In this document: positions 24,221-44,457 of the stretch, piece by piece
Layout of the letters: every line of letters starts with the position of its first letter
How positions within the stretch are numbered: the stretch's first letter is position 1
From: Candidatus Flemingiibacterium sp.
Lineage (GTDB): Bacteria > Bacillota > Clostridia > Oscillospirales > CAG-272
Direction: 5' to 3'
Assembly (NCBI GenBank): GCA_045636145.1
Contig: JAZTWV010000047.1
Coordinates: 11,101 to 75,100 of the forward strand
DNA: 64,000 bases
Position numbers and translations under genes: made by a program
Notes under the pieces: model-generated
Told to the model about the DNA's origin: nothing
The model's input: the letters and a program-made list of their open reading frames with translations, nothing else
The model's database searches: none

Positions 24221-24742
24221 ATGTATTACGGAAACATAAAAAACTGCGACGTGGCAAACGGTGTTGGCGTGCGTGTGACGCTGTTTGTGTCGGGGTGCAC
24301 CAACAGATGCGAGCATTGCTTTCAGCCGGAGACGTGGGATTTTTCCTTCGGTGAGGAATTTACCAGCACAGTGGAGGACAAAATTCTCGATATGCTGAAG
24401 CCGTCGTATATAAACGGACTCACGGTGCTTGGCGGCGAGCCTTTTGAGCCGCAAAACCAGCGTGCGCTTCTGCCGTTTCTCAGACGTGTGCGTGAGGCGT
24501 ATCCGGAGAAGGACATATGGGCATTTTCCGGCTTTACATACGAGGAACTTCGACATGACGGCTCACATCCGAGATGCGAGGCGACGGACGAAATACTCTC
24601 GCTTATTGATGTGTTGGTGGACGGACGGTATGTTCACGAAAAGCGCAATCTTATGCTGAAATTCCGCGGATCGTCCAATCAGCGTTTAATTGACATGAAT
24701 GCCACACGCTTGACGGGACAGATCGTTTTGTGGGACGAGTAA
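24221..24742 (+). CDS. nrdG: Anaerobic ribonucleotide reductase activating protein (radical SAM)
   Basis: 173 aa. Starts YGNIKNCDVANGVGVRVTLFVSGCTNRCEHCFQ. Confidence 0.9.
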   Translation: MYYGNIKNCDVANGVGVRVTLFVSGCTNRCEHCFQPETWDFSFGEEFTSTVEDKILDMLKPSYINGLTVLGGEPFEPQNQRALLPFLRRVREAYPEKDIWAFSGFTYEELRHDGSHPRCEATDEILSLIDVLVDGRYVHEKRNLMLKFRGSSNQRLIDMNATRLTGQIVLWDE

Positions 24743-24790
24743 TAAAATGTAACTGCGAGCAAAGTTTGCAAAAACAGAAACGCTTTTGTA

Positions 24791-24877
24791 AAATAAACGG
24801 CAGGAGCAAGCCCCTGCCCTACAGAATACCATAAATCTCGGTTGTAGGGCGGGGGCTTGCTCCCGCCGTTTTATTTT
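24791..24877. repeat. REP-like inverted doublet, copy A
   Basis: Arms are CGGCAGGAGCAAGCCCCTGCCCTACA (24798-24823) and TGTAGGGCGGGGGCTTGCTCCCGCCG (24843-24868). They are flanked by aaaataaa / ttttatttt and lie between convergent nrdG and carB-dapF. Confidence 0.8.
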
Positions 24878-24902: not shown

Positions 24903-25769
24903 TTAAAGTACAACCTTGCCTTCGTAGATCTTGGTGGCATCGCCTGAGAGGTATACCGCTTCATCGGTGTAGCGAATCTTGAGATCGCCGCCCTTTAATT
25001 TAACGGTGATTTCCTCATTCTTGGGGCAGTATCCGTTTTCAACCGCCGCCACTACAGCCGCACACGCACCGCTTCCACAGGCGAAGGTTTCGCCGGAGCC
25101 GCGCTCCCATACACGCATTTTAAGTGTGTGGGAATTGAGAACCTTGACAAATTCGGTGTTCACACGCTCGGGGAACAGCGGATCGTTTTCAAACTTCGGA
25201 CCAAGCTCCTGCAAATTAAGATTGTCAAGCACATCCTCAAACTCATCATTGAACACAACGCAGTGAGGATTGCCCATAGACACGCAGGTGATACGGTAAC
25301 GGTCGCCGGCAACCTGGGTAGGAACGCCGATCACGTTTCGAAGAGCCATCTTCACGGGGATAAGGGAGGGATTAAGCTCCGCCTTGCCCATGTTGACGGT
25401 AACGTTGCTGACCTCGCCGCTTACCTTTTCATATGTGGTCTCGCGGATTCCGCTCAGCGTTTCGATGGTAACGGTTTCGCCGTTTGCCATCTTATTGTCT
25501 ACCATATACTTTACAATGCAGCGTGCCGCATTGCCGCACATCTTGCCCTCTGTACCGTCAAGATTGAACATACGCATCTTAACGTCAGCCACGTCGGATG
25601 GGTACATCAGCACTACTCCGTCGCCGCCGATGCCGAAGTGACGGTCTGCAAGGCGGATGGAAAGTCCTTCGGGATTGTCGATCTTCTGGTTAAAGCAGTT
25701 GAAGTAGATATAGTCGTTTCCGCAGGCTTCCATCTTGGTAAATTCAAGAGTTGCCTTTGAGTCGCGCAT
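24903..25769 (-). other. dapF: DapF portion of the fusion ORF
   Basis: [23 protein letters not shown] resembles a DapF N-terminus. Both catalytic Cys motifs are present ([16 protein letters not shown] and [16 protein letters not shown]). No stop codon and no SD precede the internal ATG at 25767-25769. Confidence 0.8.
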
Positions 25770-28700
25770 ATCGTTGATATCAACAAGCTCGGTACAGCTC
25801 TGAGAATAACGGCTCTTAAGGCAGTCTGCAACCGCATTTGCCGTATCTATAGAGGTAAGGCAGGGGATTGCGCGCTCAACCGTCTTGCGGCGTATCTTAA
25901 CGCTGTCACGGGTAGGAATACGTCCCTTAGCGGATGTGGAGATAACATAGTCGATACGTCCGGATTCGATAAGCTTAAGGGTGTTGTTTTCGCCCTCGTG
26001 AATCTTATCTACGGTCTTGACCTTCATTCCGTAGTCTGCGATTACTTCTGCAGTGCCGCGAGTCGCGTAAAGCTCAAAGCCAAGGTCATAGAATCTCTTT
26101 GCGGTTTCGCCGATCTCGGACTTGTCGGAATCGCGGACGGTTATGAATATGCCGCCCTGCTTCTTCAGCTTGTAGCCTGCCGCAACGAGACCCTTGAACA
26201 GTGCTTCCTCGCGTGTGCTTGCAAGACCCAGAACCTCACCTGTGGACTTCATTTCCGGACCGAGGTGGTTGTCAACGTTCATCAGCTTTTCAAAGGAGAA
26301 TACAGGCACCTTTACAGCAACATAAGGAGATGTCTTGTAAAGTCCTGTGCCGTAGCCCATATCCTTAAGTTTTTCGCCAAGCATACAGCGTGTGGCAAGG
26401 TCTACCATAGGAACGCCTGTAACCTTGCTGATATAGGGGATCGTACGGGAAGAACGGGGGTTGACCTCGATAACATACAGTCTGTGGTCCTGATTGCTTA
26501 TAAGGTACTGTATGTTTACAAGACCCATTATCTTAAGAGATGTGGAAAGGTTCTTTGTTACTTCAATAATCTCCTCGCGGAGCTTATCGGTGATGTTCCA
26601 TGCCGGATATACCGCAATAGAGTCGCCGGAGTGGATACCGGTACGCTCAACGTGCTCCATGATACCGGGGATGAGGATATCATCGCCGTCACAGATAGCG
26701 TCAACCTCAAGCTCGATACCCATGAGGTATTTGTCTATAAGAACGGGGTTTTCGATGTTGTTTGCAAGGATTATCTTCATGTATTCCTTGATATCGTCCT
26801 CAGTAAAGGCGATGATCATATTCTGACCGCCGAGAACGTATGAGGGACGCATGAGAACGGGATATCCTATACGGGAAGCAACAGTAAGTGCTTCCTCTGT
26901 TGTCATTACGGTGAAGCCCTCGGGACGTGCTACGTGATTTGCTTCAAGCAGTGCATCAAAGCGTTCTCTGTCCTCTGCCGCGTCGATTGAATCGGCGGAG
27001 GTGCCGAGGATGTTTACGCCGTGCTCGGACATAAACTTTGTGAGCTTGATAGCGGTCTGACCGCCGAATGCTACTACAACGCCATAAGGCTTCTCGGTTT
27101 CGATGATGTTCATTACATCCTCGGGAGTAAGCGGCTCGAAGTAGAGTCTGTCGGCAGTGTCGAAGTCGGTGGAAACGGTTTCGGGGTTGTTGTTTACGAT
27201 AACAACATCGTAGCCTGCCTGCTTCAGCGACCATACGCAGTGCACGGATGCATAGTCAAACTCGATACCCTGACCGATTCGGATAGGACCTGAACCGAAA
27301 ACGATTACAGTCTTCTTTGAGGGATATTTCTTCTTCTCAATAAACTCTGCCGCCTCGTTTTCATCGTCGTAGGTGGAGTAGAAATAGGGGGTGTTTGCGG
27401 AGAATTCTGCCGCGCAGGTGTCAACCACCTTATAAACGGCACTCTTGTGCATACCATCGGGAAGTGCCTTGCCGCAGTATTCTTCGATAAGCTTGTCGGG
27501 GAAGCCCATTACCTTGGCTTCATGGTAAAGCTCCTTTGTCAGAGCTTCATCTTTGAGGCTGTGCTCCATTTTGATAAGATTGAGGAATTTATTTAAGAAC
27601 CATTCGTCGATCATGGTGATCTCGTGAATCTTATCCACGGTAGTTCCGCGGCGAAGTGCCTCGTAAACGATAAACAGACGCTCATCGTCCACGTTGTAAA
27701 GTCTTGACGCTACATCCTCATCGGACAGCTCGCGGTATTTCTTGTGCGAGAGGCAGTTCATGCCGATCTCAACACCGCGTACCGCTTTCATTATAGCCTG
27801 CTCAAAGGAAGTACCGATAGCCATGACCTCACCGGTTGCCTTCATCTGAGTGCCGAGGGTTCTCTTGGCGTAAACGAATTTATCAAAGGGCCACTTGGGG
27901 AATTTTACAACAATATAGTCGATAGTAGGCTCAAAGCAAGCATAGGTCGTGCCTGTTACCGCGTTGAGAATTTCGGGAAGTGTGTAGCCTATAGCGATCT
28001 TTGCCGCAACCTTTGCAATGGGATAACCTGTTGCCTTGGATGCAAGGGCGGAGGAACGGGATACGCGGGGGTTTACCTCGATAACAGCGTATTCCTTGCT
28101 TTCGGGATGAAGTGCGAACTGACAGTTACATCCGCCCTCGATTTCAAGCTCTTGGATAATGTCAAGAGCCGCGCCGCGGAGCATCTGATATTCGTCATCG
28201 GAGAGAGTTACCGCAGGGGCAACAACCACGGAGTCGCCGGTGTGAACGCCTACAGGGTCCACGTTTTCCATGGAGCAGATGGTGATAACGTTGCCTGCGC
28301 TGTCGCGCATAACCTCAAATTCGATCTCTTTCCAGCCGGATACGCACTTTTCAACAAGCACCTGGTGAATAGGAGAAGCGTTGAGACCGCCGTTTGTGAT
28401 CTCGATAAACTCATCCTCGTTGTATGCGATGCCGCCGCCTGTTCCGCCGAGGGTGAATGCGGGGCGGATAATAAGCGGATAGCCGTTTGCATGGGCAAAT
28501 TCAAGTGCCGCGTGAAGATCGTTTACAACGAGAGAGGGAATGCAGGGCTGACCTATTTTCATCATGGTGTCCTTGAACATCTGACGGTCCTCAGCCTTGT
28601 CGATGGTTTCGGGACGTGCACCGAGAAGCTTTACGCCCATTTTGTCAAGGAAGCCTTCCTTTGCAAGCTGCATTGACAGGGTAAGACCTGTCTGACCGCC

Positions 28701-28970
28701 AAGGGTGGACAGCAGGCTGTCGGGGCGTTCCTTTTCGATTATACGCTTGATCGTGGGCAGTGTAAGAGGCTCAATGTAAACCTCGTCTGCCATAGCGTTG
28801 TCTGTCATTATGGTCGCAGGGTTGGAGTTTACAAGAACGACCTCAAGACCGTCCTCTTTAAGCGCACGGCACGCCTGTGTGCCTGCGTAGTCAAATTCGG
28901 CTGCCTGACCGATAACAATAGGACCTGAGCCGATAACCATTACTTTTTTTATATCTTTTCTGAGCGGCAT
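24903..28970 (-). CDS. carB: Carbamoyl-phosphate synthase large subunit fused in frame to diaminopimelate epimerase (CarB-DapF, 1355 aa)
   Basis: Single uninterrupted ORF. The first 1067 aa are a complete CarB: two ATP-grasp halves ([19 protein letters not shown] and [18 protein letters not shown]) plus the MGS-like domain. The last 288 aa are a complete DapF. Confidence 0.85.
25770..28970 (-). other. carB: CarB portion of the fusion ORF
   Basis: 1067 codons, a normal CarB length. Ends ...[18 protein letters not shown]. Confidence 0.8.
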
Positions 28971-32218: not shown

Positions 32219-32239
32219 TGGCGTGTGATAGTTAAAAAG

Positions 32240-32307
32240 CGGCGTGAGCAAGCCACGCCCTGCAATCCGTGTTTAACAGTTTGTAGGGCAGGGGCTTGCT
32301 CCTGCCG
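32240..32307. repeat. REP-like inverted doublet, copy B
   Basis: Arms are CGGCGTGAGCAAGCCACGCCCTGCA (32240-32264) and TGTAGGGCAGGGGCTTGCTCCTGCCG (32282-32307). They lie between the convergent lipoprotein and ROK genes. Confidence 0.8.
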
Positions 32308-32333
32308 TTTCTTGGCGGACGTTTATCTGTAGT

Positions 32334-32367
32334 AAAAAAAACGGCGCTGTCTCGCATGACAGCGCTG
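32334..32367 (-). terminator. Intrinsic terminator of the ROK gene
   Basis: GGCGCTGTC-tcgcat-GACAGCGCT, with an 8-nt A-run on the plus strand (a U-run in the minus transcript). Confidence 0.7.
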
Positions 32368-41379: not shown

Positions 41380-41445
41380 AAATCCCCTTAGAGGAAGCTT
41401 GAAAACATAAAGACAAGCTTCTTTCAGGGGGATTTGCTGTTTTGC
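41380..41445 (+). terminator. Long imperfect hairpin plus T-rich tract after the ferredoxin gene
   Basis: AAATCCCCTTAGAGGAAGCTTG...CAAGCTTCTTTCAGGGGGATTT, then GCTGTTTTG. Confidence 0.55.
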
Positions 41446-41473
41446 AGACTTTTTTGGGGCGTGATTCGCGCTT

Positions 41474-41553
41474 CCGTAGGGCAGGGGCTTGCTCCTGCCG
41501 TTTGTGTAGATGAAAGTGATATTAGACGGCGGGAGTAACCCCCCGCCCTACGG
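41474..41553. repeat. REP-like inverted doublet, copy C (units in the opposite relative order)
   Basis: Arms are CCGTAGGGCAGGGGCTTGCTCCTGCCG (41474-41500) and CGGCGGGAGTAACCCCCCGCCCTACGG (41527-41553). They lie between the convergent ferredoxin and SLH genes. Confidence 0.8.
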
Positions 41554-41673
41554 TGTGGAGAGGTGTAATCTTTTTTTCGGGTATTTGACGTGCCCATGGA
41601 TGCGGATACATATCCGCACATTGCGAATAAAAAAGATGCGGTACGCCGCTGGCGTACCGCATCTGAGGATGAA

Positions 41674-44457
41674 TTATTCTACAGTAAAGTCAGAGGTGAA
41701 TTTCACGCCGTTTACCTTGAAGCTGAGTCTGTAGCTGCCTGCCTCAAGAGTTGTGCCGGTGGTTATCTCAAAGGAGAAGGTATCGGTGTCAAGGAGAGCG
41801 GTCTCAAAGCCTTCGCTGTCAACTGTGGTGTACTCCTTGGTGTCGGCATCGTACAGCTTCAGTGAGGTGAACTCATAGGAGTCAGCACTGCGGAGATCCT
41901 CTGCCGCCGCCACGGTGATCTTGCCCTCTGCATATTCTGCGGTGAAGGTTGCATCGCCGAGAAGGATAACAGACTTAACAGCGCCGTTTTCGGTAATTAC
42001 CTCAACGTTACCCATGAATACGTCCTTGATAGAGAGGCTGTCAACAGTCTCGTCGTTGTTAAGAACGGTAAACTTAACGCCGCTTGCAAGCTTGTAGGTC
42101 TCGCCGCCTACTGTTATAGTAGTGGGAGTGTAGCCGGATACGATACCGCTTGCTACCTCAGCCGCAGTGGTGGAGATAAGACCGTCAATGCCGGTGAGAT
42201 AATTTGTACCCTCTGCAAGCTCAGCGCTTCTTGACTTCATGGTTTCAATCTTGCCGGTGGAGAGATCAAGTACGATGTAGAGGTTGTAAACAGTGCCGTC
42301 AACAAGCTCCTTGCCTGCATGGCGGATTACCTTTACAGCGGTAGATGCAGAGTCTACACTGCCGAGGCTTCCGTCAGAAATATACATGTAGCGGAGAGTT
42401 TCAACAGAGCCTACCTCGTTGTCGAAAATTGCGGTTACGGATGCGCCGTCATTTATGGTAATTGTTGAAGTGTATGCGCCTGTTACCTTTGTAAAGGTGT
42501 CGCCGATCTTCACGATTATCACGGTATTGTCATTCATGACAAACTTAACGGACGATGCGCCGTCCGCAGTTGAGATAAGGGATTCTGCGCTTCCTGCGGA
42601 GATGGTGTGATAGGATGTGCCGGAGGTTACGGTGCTGGAGCTTGCCTCGTCTATAGCGAACGCGATCTCATCGTTGCGGCTGCTTGACTGAACGAACTTG
42701 TCATCGCCGGAAACGATGGTGCCGCCGCTTACAGTACGGGGGATAAGGGTGTACTCACCCTCTGCATCAACGGTGTAGCGATATACTTCACCGGGAGTTA
42801 CGGTGCGGTTGGAAACCATGATGGTCTCCTCCTTGCCGTCGATTACAGCTTCCATTACATAACCAAACTTGCCGTCGGCGAATACGGGAGTGGTCTCGCT
42901 CTCTGCAATAAGGTACTTGGAGGGAGCCTTTACAGTGGTAGAAGAGGTTTCTACCGCGAGTATCTGATCTCCGTATACTACAATGCTTACGGTTTCACCT
43001 ACGCCAAGCTGTGCATAGATGTCCTCGGCATCAATACCAAGCATCTCGTTTCCGAGAGTGTAGCGAGTGCCGCCGATGGTAGCGGTAGTTCTTGTGAGGC
43101 GTGTAACCTTTGCAGGATCACTTACGGGAAGGACAGCCGCGATTTCAAGAGTTTCGTTGCCCTCATTGAAGTAGTAGAGAACATAATCGCCGCTCTGGGC
43201 CTTGTGGGGATTGATTACGGTAAGCTCTTCTTCCTCGATGCCGCCTGCAATGTTTATCTCGCCGTCCTCGATTTCAAGCATATCGAAAGCGAAGGGCTTT
43301 ATGATAAGACGGCTTGCGGTGGTGCTTTCCTTAGAGTCAAAGATAAGATGTGCGTCGAATGCTCCGGTGAGCTCGGAAAGGTCTTCGTTTGTTGTAATCT
43401 GAACGAGGGTATCATCATCTGCGTGTGCATAAACGAGAAGCTCGTTGGAGTTGGTGGACAGTGCATCGGAAAGCTCCTCAACTACCTGATACTTAACTCC
43501 CTCGATGAGTACATACTCATAGTCCTCGTCAACCTCAATCTTTTCTGCCGCAACGCTCTTGCCAAGCTCGGTGCAGCCGATAACGCTTACAAGACCGGAC
43601 TTGTCGTCGCGCTTGTAAACAAGCTTATAGCTTCTGCCGAGGTGCGCATCTGCGTCGCCCTCAAGCTCAAGCTCGTCATACTTTACGGTAATAAGACCGT
43701 CATCGGTATGAACTGTGATGTAGCCTTCCTTGGTAACGGAAGAAACGCCTTCAAGTGCGTAGCTGTTGGTTGCAACAATAACGCTTTCGCTTATCTCGTA
43801 ACCAAATACACGCTCTGCAATGGTGGTGGACTCATAGAATGTAGAGCCGTTAGCCGCGGTTTTGGGGATGAGGTACTCTGCGGTTACAGCGTTGTAAAGA
43901 AGTCCCGCGATTTCCGCACGGGTGAGCACCTTGGTGTAATCAACATCCTCCATACCGTCGTCAAGCCCAAGCTTAAGCGCGGTGTCGATGTAGGTCCAAG
44001 GATAGCCTGCATTCATTTTTGCGGTGTCGTGACCGAGTGCACGCACCAGCATGGTCATGGCATCCTGCATGGTGATTCCCTCGGTAGGCTCGAATGTGGT
44101 TGCGGATGTACCGAGGATGTAGCCGGAAGCGTTTGCCCAGGAGATAGCACCGTGGTAGGTGTCGTCGTAGAGGTCGGTGAACGCAGTAGAGTTGATTCTG
44201 CCTGCGCTGTCCTTGCCGATCATAAGTCTGAACAGAAGCATTGCCATCTGCTCACGGGTAACTTTTTCATCGGGTGAAAATTCGGTGTCGCTTGTACCCT
44301 TAATGACTCCTATATCGGAAAGGATCTCGATCTGCTCAGCGTAGCGGTCACTAGGTGTAATATCATCGTAGGACTTCGCCTGAGCGCCGGTCATAAGTGC
44401 GGTCACTATCATGAGTGTCGCAAGAGAGCCGGACATGATTCTTTTGAGATTTCTCAT
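41674..44457 (-). CDS. SLH-domain cell-surface (S-layer-type) protein
   Basis: 927 aa. Signal peptide (…TGAQA), then three N-terminal SLH repeats (e.g. FSPDEKVTREQMAMLLFRLM, ...TMQDAMTMLVRAL, ...LTRAEIAGLLYNA). The rest is a long Thr/Val/Gly-rich beta-type region. Confidence 0.8.
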   Translation of the reverse strand: MRNLKRIMSGSLATLMIVTALMTGAQAKSYDDITPSDRYAEQIEILSDIGVIKGTSDTEFSPDEKVTREQMAMLLFRLMIGKDSAGRINSTAFTDLYDDTYHGAISWANASGYILGTSATTFEPTEGITMQDAMTMLVRALGHDTAKMNAGYPWTYIDTALKLGLDDGMEDVDYTKVLTRAEIAGLLYNAVTAEYLIPKTAANGSTFYESTTIAERVFGYEISESVIVATNSYALEGVSSVTKEGYITVHTDDGLITVKYDELELEGDADAHLGRSYKLVYKRDDKSGLVSVIGCTELGKSVAAEKIEVDEDYEYVLIEGVKYQVVEELSDALSTNSNELLVYAHADDDTLVQITTNEDLSELTGAFDAHLIFDSKESTTASRLIIKPFAFDMLEIEDGEINIAGGIEEEELTVINPHKAQSGDYVLYYFNEGNETLEIAAVLPVSDPAKVTRLTRTTATIGGTRYTLGNEMLGIDAEDIYAQLGVGETVSIVVYGDQILAVETSSTTVKAPSKYLIAESETTPVFADGKFGYVMEAVIDGKEETIMVSNRTVTPGEVYRYTVDAEGEYTLIPRTVSGGTIVSGDDKFVQSSSRNDEIAFAIDEASSSTVTSGTSYHTISAGSAESLISTADGASSVKFVMNDNTVIIVKIGDTFTKVTGAYTSTITINDGASVTAIFDNEVGSVETLRYMYISDGSLGSVDSASTAVKVIRHAGKELVDGTVYNLYIVLDLSTGKIETMKSRSAELAEGTNYLTGIDGLISTTAAEVASGIVSGYTPTTITVGGETYKLASGVKFTVLNNDETVDSLSIKDVFMGNVEVITENGAVKSVILLGDATFTAEYAEGKITVAAAEDLRSADSYEFTSLKLYDADTKEYTTVDSEGFETALLDTDTFSFEITTGTTLEAGSYRLSFKVNGVKFTSDFTVE

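Follow-up and report, generated by a model that had tools for sequence, protein, structure and literature searches.

We report on a short hairpin repeat in a 64,000-nt stretch of Candidatus Flemingiibacterium DNA, called the window in the following. Six units of this repeat are present in the window. With good confidence we regard them as repetitive extragenic palindromes (REPs) of the GTAG-tagged superfamily, which form three inverted doublets resembling REP doublets forming hairpins (REPINs) and for which a REP-associated tyrosine transposase (RAYT) is the proposed mover. A reading of the REP/RAYT type had been put forward in an earlier note made from the sequence alone. It is now supported by a discrete palindrome with a covarying stem, by the occurrence of the unit in more than 100 genomes, by its presence or absence between close strains, and by RAYT-like genes of the lineage which themselves bear the unit. 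The family is of a real REP/REPIN type: the kind is known, the phylum is new, and the layout of the RAYT gene is unusual.

Structure of the hairpin units and their doublets

The unit is 25 nt long and consists of a GTAG head, a 9-bp GC-rich stem and a 2-nt TT loop (consensus GTAG-GGCGGGGGC-TT-GCTCCCGCC-G). The copies in the window are the following.

Unit A1: 24798-24822, minus strand; GTAGGGCAGGGGCTTGCTCCTGCCG, then TTTATTTT on its own strand; exact pattern match, covariance model 44.2 bits; terminator-like on the minus strand
Unit A2: 24844-24868, plus strand; GTAGGGCGGGGGCTTGCTCCCGCCG, which is the family consensus, then TTTTATTTT; covariance model 46.6 bits; terminator-like on the plus strand
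Unit B1: 32240-32263, minus strand; GCAGGGCGTGGCTTGCTCACGCCG; diverged, with a GCAG head, a stem shorter by 1 nt and compensatory stem changes; covariance model 22.2 bits, E=6e-5
Unit B2: 32283-32307, plus strand; GTAGGGCAGGGGCTTGCTCCTGCCG; exact pattern match, covariance model 44.2 bits
Unit C1: 41476-41500, plus strand; GTAGGGCAGGGGCTTGCTCCTGCCG; exact pattern match, covariance model 44.2 bits
Unit C2: 41527-41551, minus strand; GTAGGGCGGGGGGTTACTCCCGCCG; covariance model 41.8 bits
Doublet A: 24790-24876; GTAG heads inward, 21-nt spacer, A/T-rich flanks

As claimed in the earlier note, whose coordinates proved right within 1-2 nt, the six units make up three inverted pairs, and according to the open reading frame (ORF) calls every pair lies between two convergent genes. 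Doublet A is situated between nrdD-nrdG (the nrdG-like activase ends at 24742, plus strand) and carB (ending at 24903, minus strand), doublet B between a 684-aa ORF and a ROK gene, and doublet C between a B12/radical-SAM gene and the gene for an SLH-domain protein. The GTAG heads point inward in A and B (spacers of 21 and 19 nt) and outward in C (spacer of 26 nt). Folding of the six units bore out that each of them forms a hairpin by itself, and the head is indeed GTAG in five of the six copies, the exception being the GCAG of B1. Whole pairs can likewise fold into one long hairpin each (z = -10.7 for A, -5.0 for B and -5.6 for C). The arms of doublet A, 34 nt long and inverted, are 88% complementary, and as a single long hairpin of single-stranded DNA (ssDNA) this doublet reaches -37 kcal/mol.

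A pattern search allowing up to three mismatches found four copies in the window, with 0 expected from 100 shuffles. By means of a covariance model trained on unit variants from other genomes the six units, and no others, were detected in the 64 kb, five of them at 42-47 bits; the next match had an E value of 0.39. A scan of the 64 kb for GTAG followed by a GC-rich hairpin matched the five GTAG-headed units and revealed no further GTAG hairpin family, and no Rfam family was found in the window at gathering thresholds.

When 151 copies from other genomes were compared together with 60-nt flanks, the information content was zero beyond about 26 nt. Since the information vanishes outside this length, the unit is not part of a longer conserved element. 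That the units are fragments of a larger mobile element, which the earlier note had considered fatal to its proposal, is therefore ruled out. In these exact-pattern copies the GTAG head was preset by the search pattern; most looser variants with up to six mismatches retain it as well. The stem covaries: among 30 distinct variants 96% of the cells pair and double-sided changes are seen in six of the nine pairs, none of 500 shuffles was as good, and slid registers collapse. One stem position carries a conserved G.T wobble, and the loop-closing pair alternates between C-G and T-A (CTTG to TTTA).

The GTAG-tagged REP superfamily, which includes Pseudomonas GTAG-1 and Stenotrophomonas SMAG (Di Nocera, De Gregorio & Rocco 2013), has been described as having loops of 2-3 nt that fit TY on stems of 6-13 bp, with G.T pairs being frequent and with compensatory subfamilies; dimers lie 20-100 bp apart, heterodimers occur, and the sites are found between convergent or unidirectional ORFs (PMC3733652). 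The present family shares the imperfect GC-rich palindrome of 20-40 bp, the unpaired foot of the GTAG/GYAG/GTRG type, the TY loop and the G.T pair. It likewise has compensatory subfamilies, inverted dimers (52 inverted vs. 9 direct pairs), heterodimers, several families per genome, and a preference for extragenic positions downstream of genes at convergent or unidirectional sites, all three sites of the window being convergent. It differs in that one sequence family is common to more than 100 species and in that the carriers are Bacillota; the 2013 survey recorded such repeats in Proteobacteria, Cyanobacteria, Chloroflexi and the PVC group, and in no Firmicutes/Bacillota (PMC3733652).

The earlier note knew of no REP/RAYT system in Clostridia of this type, and this agrees with the literature searched, which lay mostly outside subscription journals. 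According to Bertels et al., RAYTs of Group 1 occur 'also in the Clostridia' and have few repeats associated with them, and REPINs go with Groups 2 and 3 only. In the same literature we found no paper on the unit, its complement or the peptides it encodes, and none that reports REPs within the reading frame of a RAYT. 'Replicators' that persist in bacterial genomes over long times by vertical inheritance are best exemplified by REP/REPIN-RAYT systems, which so far have been described essentially in Proteobacteria and a few other Gram-negative phyla. The present family places a rich GTAG-REP superfamily in Oscillospirales, a group that ranks among the most common uncultured bacteria of the human and the ruminant gut.

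Distribution and turnover of the family

A collection of species-representative genomes was scanned with GTAGGGCRGGGGNTTRCTCCYGCC. The unit was found in at least 119 stretches of 8 kb from more than 100 genomes, mostly of Oscillospirales. Among the matches listed, the carriers are almost all metagenome-assembled genomes (MAGs) labelled Oscillospiraceae, Acutalibacteraceae, Faecousia, Ruminococcus, Eubacteriales or Clostridia, which stem from human, ruminant and other guts; isolates among them are Ruminococcus albus 8 and Sporobacter termitidis DSM 10068. A MAG labelled Alphaproteobacteria (L019) and one labelled Bifidobacteriaceae (L068) also carry the unit; these could be mis-binned contigs or cases of horizontal transfer. 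The unit is furthermore present on 21 IMG/VR contigs, which are classed as viral, with up to five copies per 14 kb (e.g. L143 4786-10792 and L153 6499-12505), and no RAYT gene was found on these 21 contigs.

The 119 listed stretches and the window together contain 207 units. A partner within 200 nt is present for 112 of them, and 80 are singletons by the detection used. By orientation, 43 pairs are GTAG-outward (modal spacer 25 nt), 9 are GTAG-inward (spacers mostly 16-22 nt) and 9 are direct. The spacers are alike in length (16-30 nt) and unrelated in sequence. Compared with bacterial interspersed mosaic elements (BIMEs) of the E. coli type, in which Y and Z REPs alternate and which have defined linker motifs and sites for IHF and gyrase, heterodimers of two unit variants are common here and no linker motif is conserved. 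The genes on both sides converge at 43 units, run in tandem at 61 and diverge at 12, the corresponding background counts being 112, 371 and 108; the underlying gene calls are crude, 116 units being intergenic and 45 scored as inside an ORF, mostly in over-extended ORF ends. Counted outward from a cluster, the carrier genomes hold about one further cluster per 20 kb, and the window has the same density. This would extrapolate to about 100 clusters per genome of 2-2.5 Mb; the window itself contains six units in three clusters. GTAG-tagged REPs typically number more than 100 per genome.

The unit-carrying genomes hold a whole GTAG-REP superfamily with many families per genome. With the present family masked, GTAG was still the second commonest of the tetranucleotides that immediately precede GC hairpins on their 5' side in these stretches (165 occurrences vs. 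a mean of 46), and the remaining GTAG hairpins form many further families. Examples of such hairpins are GTAGGGGCGACCATTGGTCGCCCG, GTAGGGAACGGTCTTGACCGTTCCG, GTAGGGACGGGCGTCCTCGACCGTCCG and GTAGGGGCGATTCACGAATCGCCCG. The further families often cluster with the present one, as at L120 15264-15381 and in many of the stretches L001-L119 (L012 5162-5757, L041, L042).

Turnover between close strains was seen at loci B and C. The ENA metagenome contig L120 encodes a GroEL identical to that of the window and is 94-97% identical to window positions 26077-47891. The alignment breaks exactly at these two loci.

Indel block B: 32234-32346; 102 nt in the window that are absent from the ~95% identical L120 (global alignment)
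Terminator beside doublet B: 32342-32367; ordinary bidirectional intrinsic terminator outside the repeat family, kept in the doublet-less L120
Variable block C: 41444-41611; in the window a GTAG-outward doublet with a 26-nt spacer (break of the L120 alignment and hairpin scans)

At locus B, L120 contains the ordinary bidirectional terminator alone. An 11-nt direct repeat, AAAAA(G/A)CGGCG, marks both edges of the indel block (32234-32244 and 32336-32346). The block may have arisen by insertion, its target being duplicated or microhomologous, or else by a slippage deletion in L120. At locus C, L120 shows a decayed C2 together with two hairpins, GTAGGGGGCGACGTCCTCGACGCCCC and GTAGGGATAGACGTCCTCGGCTGTCC, that belong to another GTAG family. 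Presence or absence at B and replacement at C are in keeping with the behaviour of REPs and REPINs. Small ORFs were called over the REP cluster of locus C, at L120 15204-15368 (a 54-aa call) and at 41590-41865 in the window; they are probably artefacts because hairpin units are read as codons there. Units of this kind break short-read assemblies and mislead gene callers into spurious small ORFs such as the 54-aa one, and they are usable as strain-level markers.

RAYT-like genes with embedded hairpins

A loose HxH filter applied to unit-adjacent ORFs, together with a two-motif regular expression, yielded no Y1 transposase, and Pfam identified housekeeping genes only among ten ORFs bracketed by units. 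The assumption that a RAYT gene lies between or beside units was wrong: a stricter regular expression for the HUH context, run on the stop-to-stop frames of all six frames of the 119 listed stretches, found the units inside the gene. Four of the stretches hold an ORF of about 170 aa with the motif YVIMPNHIH...HDHIIRN..DY..I..YI..NP; a further gene was located on L123.

RAYT-like gene: L101 2346-2876, plus strand
RAYT-like gene: L009 3926-4438, minus strand
RAYT-like gene: L106 3-503, minus strand
RAYT-like gene: L081 2-412, minus strand
RAYT-like gene: L123 10001-10531, plus strand

With the Pfam model Y1_Tnp (PF01797), whose cut-off is 23, the scores were 24.7, 23.8 and 22.5 bits, and the NCBIfam model NF047646 'REP-associated tyrosine transposase' gave 59.7, 70.3 and 79.1 bits (E=3e-16 to 3e-22); the NCBIfam IS200 model was weaker (18-21 bits, E>=3e-4). 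In BLASTP the similarity to E. coli RayT had an E value of 5e-11, the HUH and tyrosine motifs and the residues W94, Q95, H101 and R104 being kept and E100 being replaced by D. In E. coli TnpA-REP these four residues and E100 are the ones in contact with the GTAG head, and the exchange of E100 for D has been reported for the REP-associated subclasses 2.5 and 2.7 (PMC6006769). The best PDB match of the AlphaFold model of P0002 (pLDDT 86.8) was 4ER8, TnpA-REP with a REP hairpin (TM 0.63), and the matches ranked 2-30 were IS608 and ISDra2-type TnpA enzymes. Judged from these profiles and the predicted structure, the proteins belong to the Y1_Tnp fold and are closer to TnpA-REP than to IS200 TnpA. 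A phmmer search of the PDB with E. coli RayT found only the query itself, and for this reason single-sequence searches were not used as negative evidence.

The family of RAYT-like proteins comprises 2,458 word-index matches and, at the level of cluster representatives, 38,902 at E<=1e-3 and 2,742 at E<=1e-30. In four species there is one syntenic RAYT site per species across several metagenomes (e.g. between MatE and HTH genes, or between RF3 and IF-2B genes). The gene behaves like a single-copy domesticated gene and not like an insertion sequence (IS). About 4-9 kb upstream of one RAYT gene we noted a block with Viral_Rep, SprT-like and rve integrase genes (L135 1027-6690); this mobile-element-like block has no obvious link to the repeats.

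All four RAYT ORFs of the listed stretches contain the exact 25-nt unit twice in frame, GTAG-outward and 135-153 nt apart, so that the two copies bracket the HUH motif; the L123 gene likewise carries two inverted in-frame copies around HUH. The plus copy encodes VGRGLAPA and the inverted copy AGASPRPT, and of the 120 nearest homologues, which share 40-98% identity with the query, 102 have both peptides. When five genes were compared, the identity at third codon positions was 89% in the units vs. 38% elsewhere, and identical amino acids used the same codon in 123 of 139 cases in the units vs. 289 of 653 elsewhere. The changes that compensate in the stem bring amino-acid exchanges with them (R->Q/K, R->C, A->S), and the constraint is therefore on the nucleic acid. 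In the P0002 model both embedded peptides are predicted to be loops, one being the turn of a beta-hairpin and the other a low-confidence coil after the HUH strand; the latter is an insertion of eight residues (24 nt) relative to E. coli RayT.

The same two embedded sites are used in proteins that are only 40-60% identical, and different clades have different hairpins there. Among 147 diverse representatives, the peptide pair around HUH could be encoded by one inverted repeat at 7/8 positions or more in 53, vs. 0/147 in the reversed-peptide control. The correspondence extends to the dispersed repeats: of 121 dispersed hairpins from the further GTAG families, 31 encode a peptide that recurs among 280 RAYT-family proteins when one mismatch is allowed, vs. 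2 of 121 for a composition-matched control. At the two embedded sites the P0032 gene carries another hairpin, GTAGGGGCGACCAT(T/C)GGTCGCCCG, and the gene lies at the same chromosomal site as the L101 gene in a ~95% identical strain. Because the two genes share this site, they are two RAYT alleles of one species that differ in their hairpins. L101 2398-2762 and L131 829-1184 have flanks that are ~95% identical (DUF1292, RAYT, acyltransferase), whereas the central parts cannot be aligned and contain different GTAG hairpins; the C-terminal 38 residues of the two alleles are identical, which looks like a cassette exchange. In-frame tandem expansions occur at the embedded sites of P0009-P0011, P0022, P0026, P0029, P0031, P0134 and P0145, for example two to four copies of NEAAGASPRPTIMDIVCAxKSLTTRE, seven eight-residue repeats IGASP(C/R)PT (24-nt period) and three VGEVLAPP-containing blocks. 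They suggest slippage or recombination at the hairpins in the gene.

A RAYT gene flanked by units, for which the earlier note had proposed to search, was not found in the related genomes examined. In L009, L081, L101 and L106 the units are inside the RAYT ORF only. We also checked four species (the hosts of P0051, P0101, P0065 and P0113, one locus and about 20 kb each) with the covariance model, and matches of at least 36 bits lay only inside the ORF; outside it, weak matches were seen about 100 nt downstream of P0051 (13.9 bits) and about 25 nt upstream of P0113 (13.3 bits). Because the units sit inside the ORF rather than flanking it, the classical REPtron layout is absent. The layout with embedded hairpins is apparently new to the literature.

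The likeness to the REPIN-RAYT systems known from Pseudomonas fluorescens and to the REPtron of E. coli (Bertels & Rainey 2011; Nunvar 2010; Ton-Hoang 2012; Messing 2012, PDB 4ER8) comprises the inverted REP pair that can form one long hairpin, a single-copy, syntenic and domesticated-looking Y1/HUH enzyme with the TnpA-REP fold and the GTAG-contact residues, and an apparently slow turnover seen as strain-level indels. The known REPs and REPINs, however, flank the RAYT gene, whereas here the units are in frame inside the ORF and none flanks it. The RAYT gene is syntenic within species here, too, yet more than 100 species of several families carry the unit, and two RAYT alleles that differ in their hairpins occur in a single species. 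With the IS200/IS605 elements (IS608, ISDra2) the system shares a Y1/HUH enzyme of the kind that recognises subterminal hairpins on ssDNA and can mobilise short hairpin-bearing derivatives in trans. The ends of these multi-copy IS, in contrast, are two different hairpins in direct orientation that flank the gene, while the hairpins described here are identical, inverted and internal to a single-copy gene, whose product scores 70-79 bits with NF047646 vs. 18-21 bits with IS200.

The findings on the embedded pair raise the question whether the RAYT gene is the master copy of its REP. On this idea, the genes of a large clade (2,742 representatives at E<=1e-30) would hold two in-frame inverted copies of the cognate hairpin around HUH, kept by selection at the DNA level and changing along with the dispersed family. 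We put it forward tentatively, as somewhat less probable than its negation. Should the embedded pair have a function, the gene would amount to a 'giant REPIN' that could serve as an autoregulatory target, as the template of doublets or as a device for matching specificity. REP-RAYT cognate pairs could then be read from the protein sequence, and Clostridia of gut and rumen would commonly have GTAG-REP/RAYT systems. A hairpin that occurs twice in the frame of the enzyme and is clade-specific at the same sites offers a handle on the problem of how a RAYT and its repeat stay matched. The peptide signatures VG....P. and ....PT around HUH are usable for predicting the REP family of a genome.

Origin and function of the doublets

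If the units are REPs moved by a RAYT-type enzyme, the hairpin with its GTAG head would be bound on ssDNA, most likely at replication forks, by a Y1/HUH tyrosine transposase of this type, which would cut and rejoin beside the hairpin. Owing to this proposed cutting and rejoining, doublets would occasionally be copied, lost or replaced. They would persist mainly in harmless space downstream of genes, especially between convergent genes, and once settled a doublet would be open to co-option, for instance doublet A as a terminator. We infer that a RAYT is encoded in the source genome and that it moves the units; the step on ssDNA at the replication fork is taken by analogy from the biochemistry of E. 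coli TnpA-REP and IS608.

Several observations weigh against this reading. No RAYT gene was found in the 64-kb window by tblastn. The scores of the RAYT-like proteins with NF047646 (60-79 bits) are just below the curated cut-off of 80; these proteins are divergent relatives and not equivalogs of the proteobacterial family. In about 80 kb around the RAYT genes of four species no dispersed unit was found vs. about 4 expected at one cluster per 20 kb, and hence many RAYT carriers may have few or no dispersed copies; likewise, within about 11-20 kb of the RAYT gene no dispersed copy of its own embedded hairpin was detected in five species. As an 11-nt direct repeat bounds the indel at locus B, a deletion in L120 is equally possible there. 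Classical REPIN populations are lineage-specific and vertically inherited, whereas near-identical units occur here in more than 100 species of several families. Horizontal spread or a very strong constraint is therefore needed.

We considered three other explanations for the doublets. One is that the units are hairpins selected by the host as terminators, stabilisers of mRNA 3' ends or sites for host proteins, and kept alike by selection or gene conversion without a transposase. The earlier note had proposed that copy A is a bidirectional terminator, and this is plausible from the sequence pattern: both A units are GC hairpins followed by a T-run, giving the terminator pattern on both strands, and they are the only such hairpins between nrdG and carB. 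Doublet A thus resembles Rho-independent bidirectional terminators between convergent genes. The units are enriched downstream of genes, and the conserved G.T pair, which would be G.U in RNA on the GTAG strand only, also fits selection by the host; Di Nocera et al. took G.T pairs as a hint of a function at the RNA level (PMC3733652). Rho-independent terminators, however, do not form a sequence family and have no conserved unpaired GTAG head, the most conserved part of the unit, which plays no part in termination. Independent terminators would also not be expected to have identical stretches of 25-28 nt at unrelated intergenic sites in more than 100 species. A T-run follows the unit in a minority of the copies, and in the commonest pair type the tails face each other, so that no T-run comes after the structure. 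For B2, B1 and C1 the terminator pattern is weak. Stronger ordinary terminators adjoin doublets B (32342-32367) and C (41634-41664), and L120, which is without doublet B, retains its terminator. A terminator role is plausible for doublet A only, which is most likely the bidirectional terminator of nrdG and carB through a local co-option by way of its A/T-rich flanks. Since B and C adjoin stronger terminators and most members are without a T-run, termination is a plausible local co-option at A and not the reason for the family. Selection by the host as the general explanation is accordingly highly improbable.

Another explanation holds that the doublets are decay products of RAYT genes, in which the 135-150 nt between the hairpins were lost and the flanks eroded, so that they would be gene remnants and not independent REPINs. 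The genes do hold a GTAG-outward inverted pair, which is also the commonest dispersed type (43 of 61 pairs). An apparent RAYT pseudogene remnant was observed at L029 1371-1532 (minus strand), in which the two units are 60 nt apart, the HUH core is deleted, and recognisable RAYT sequence (PTRMNIVCAYKS) with stop codons follows downstream of the second unit; this locus may represent a stage on the way from the pair embedded in the gene to a short doublet. Nevertheless, no leftover conservation is seen outside the 26-nt unit in the 151 dispersed copies, and tblastn with four RAYTs matches the unit alone in 114 of the 119 listed stretches, the other five being the four intact genes and L029. The spacers of 16-30 nt are tight in length and unrelated in sequence, and GTAG-inward doublets such as A and B cannot arise by a simple internal deletion of the gene. 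Moreover, as RAYTs are single-copy at fixed syntenic sites, many gene copies are not expected. We think an origin by decay very unlikely. The units could also be mobile and be moved otherwise, by an IS200/IS605 TnpA, by another recombinase or by slippage or microhomology recombination, the RAYT loops merely tolerating insertions. The five RAYT-carrying species without nearby dispersed copies of their own hairpin, the 11-nt direct repeats at the B indel and the 21 IMG/VR contigs with the unit and without RAYT would fit such a mover. This alternative leaves unexplained why the same two sites carry clade-specific hairpins in proteins 40-60% identical, why third positions are conserved in the embedded units (89% vs. 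38%), why dispersed hairpins match embedded ones (31/121 vs. 2/121 in the control) and why the GTAG-contact residues of E. coli TnpA-REP are kept, and we hold it to be very unlikely. On balance we prefer the reading of the units as GTAG-tagged REPs with a RAYT-type enzyme as the mover.

Apart from the repeats, the carB-like ORF next to doublet A (24903-28970, minus strand) is of note. It encodes 1355 aa, about 280 aa above the usual length. A fusion may be indicated by the carB homologue of L120, in which Pfam matches to MGS and DAP_epimerase come after the CPSase domains. Three internal direct repeats (D1, D5 and D14) lie within the carB-like ORF and presumably represent the known internal duplication of CarB.

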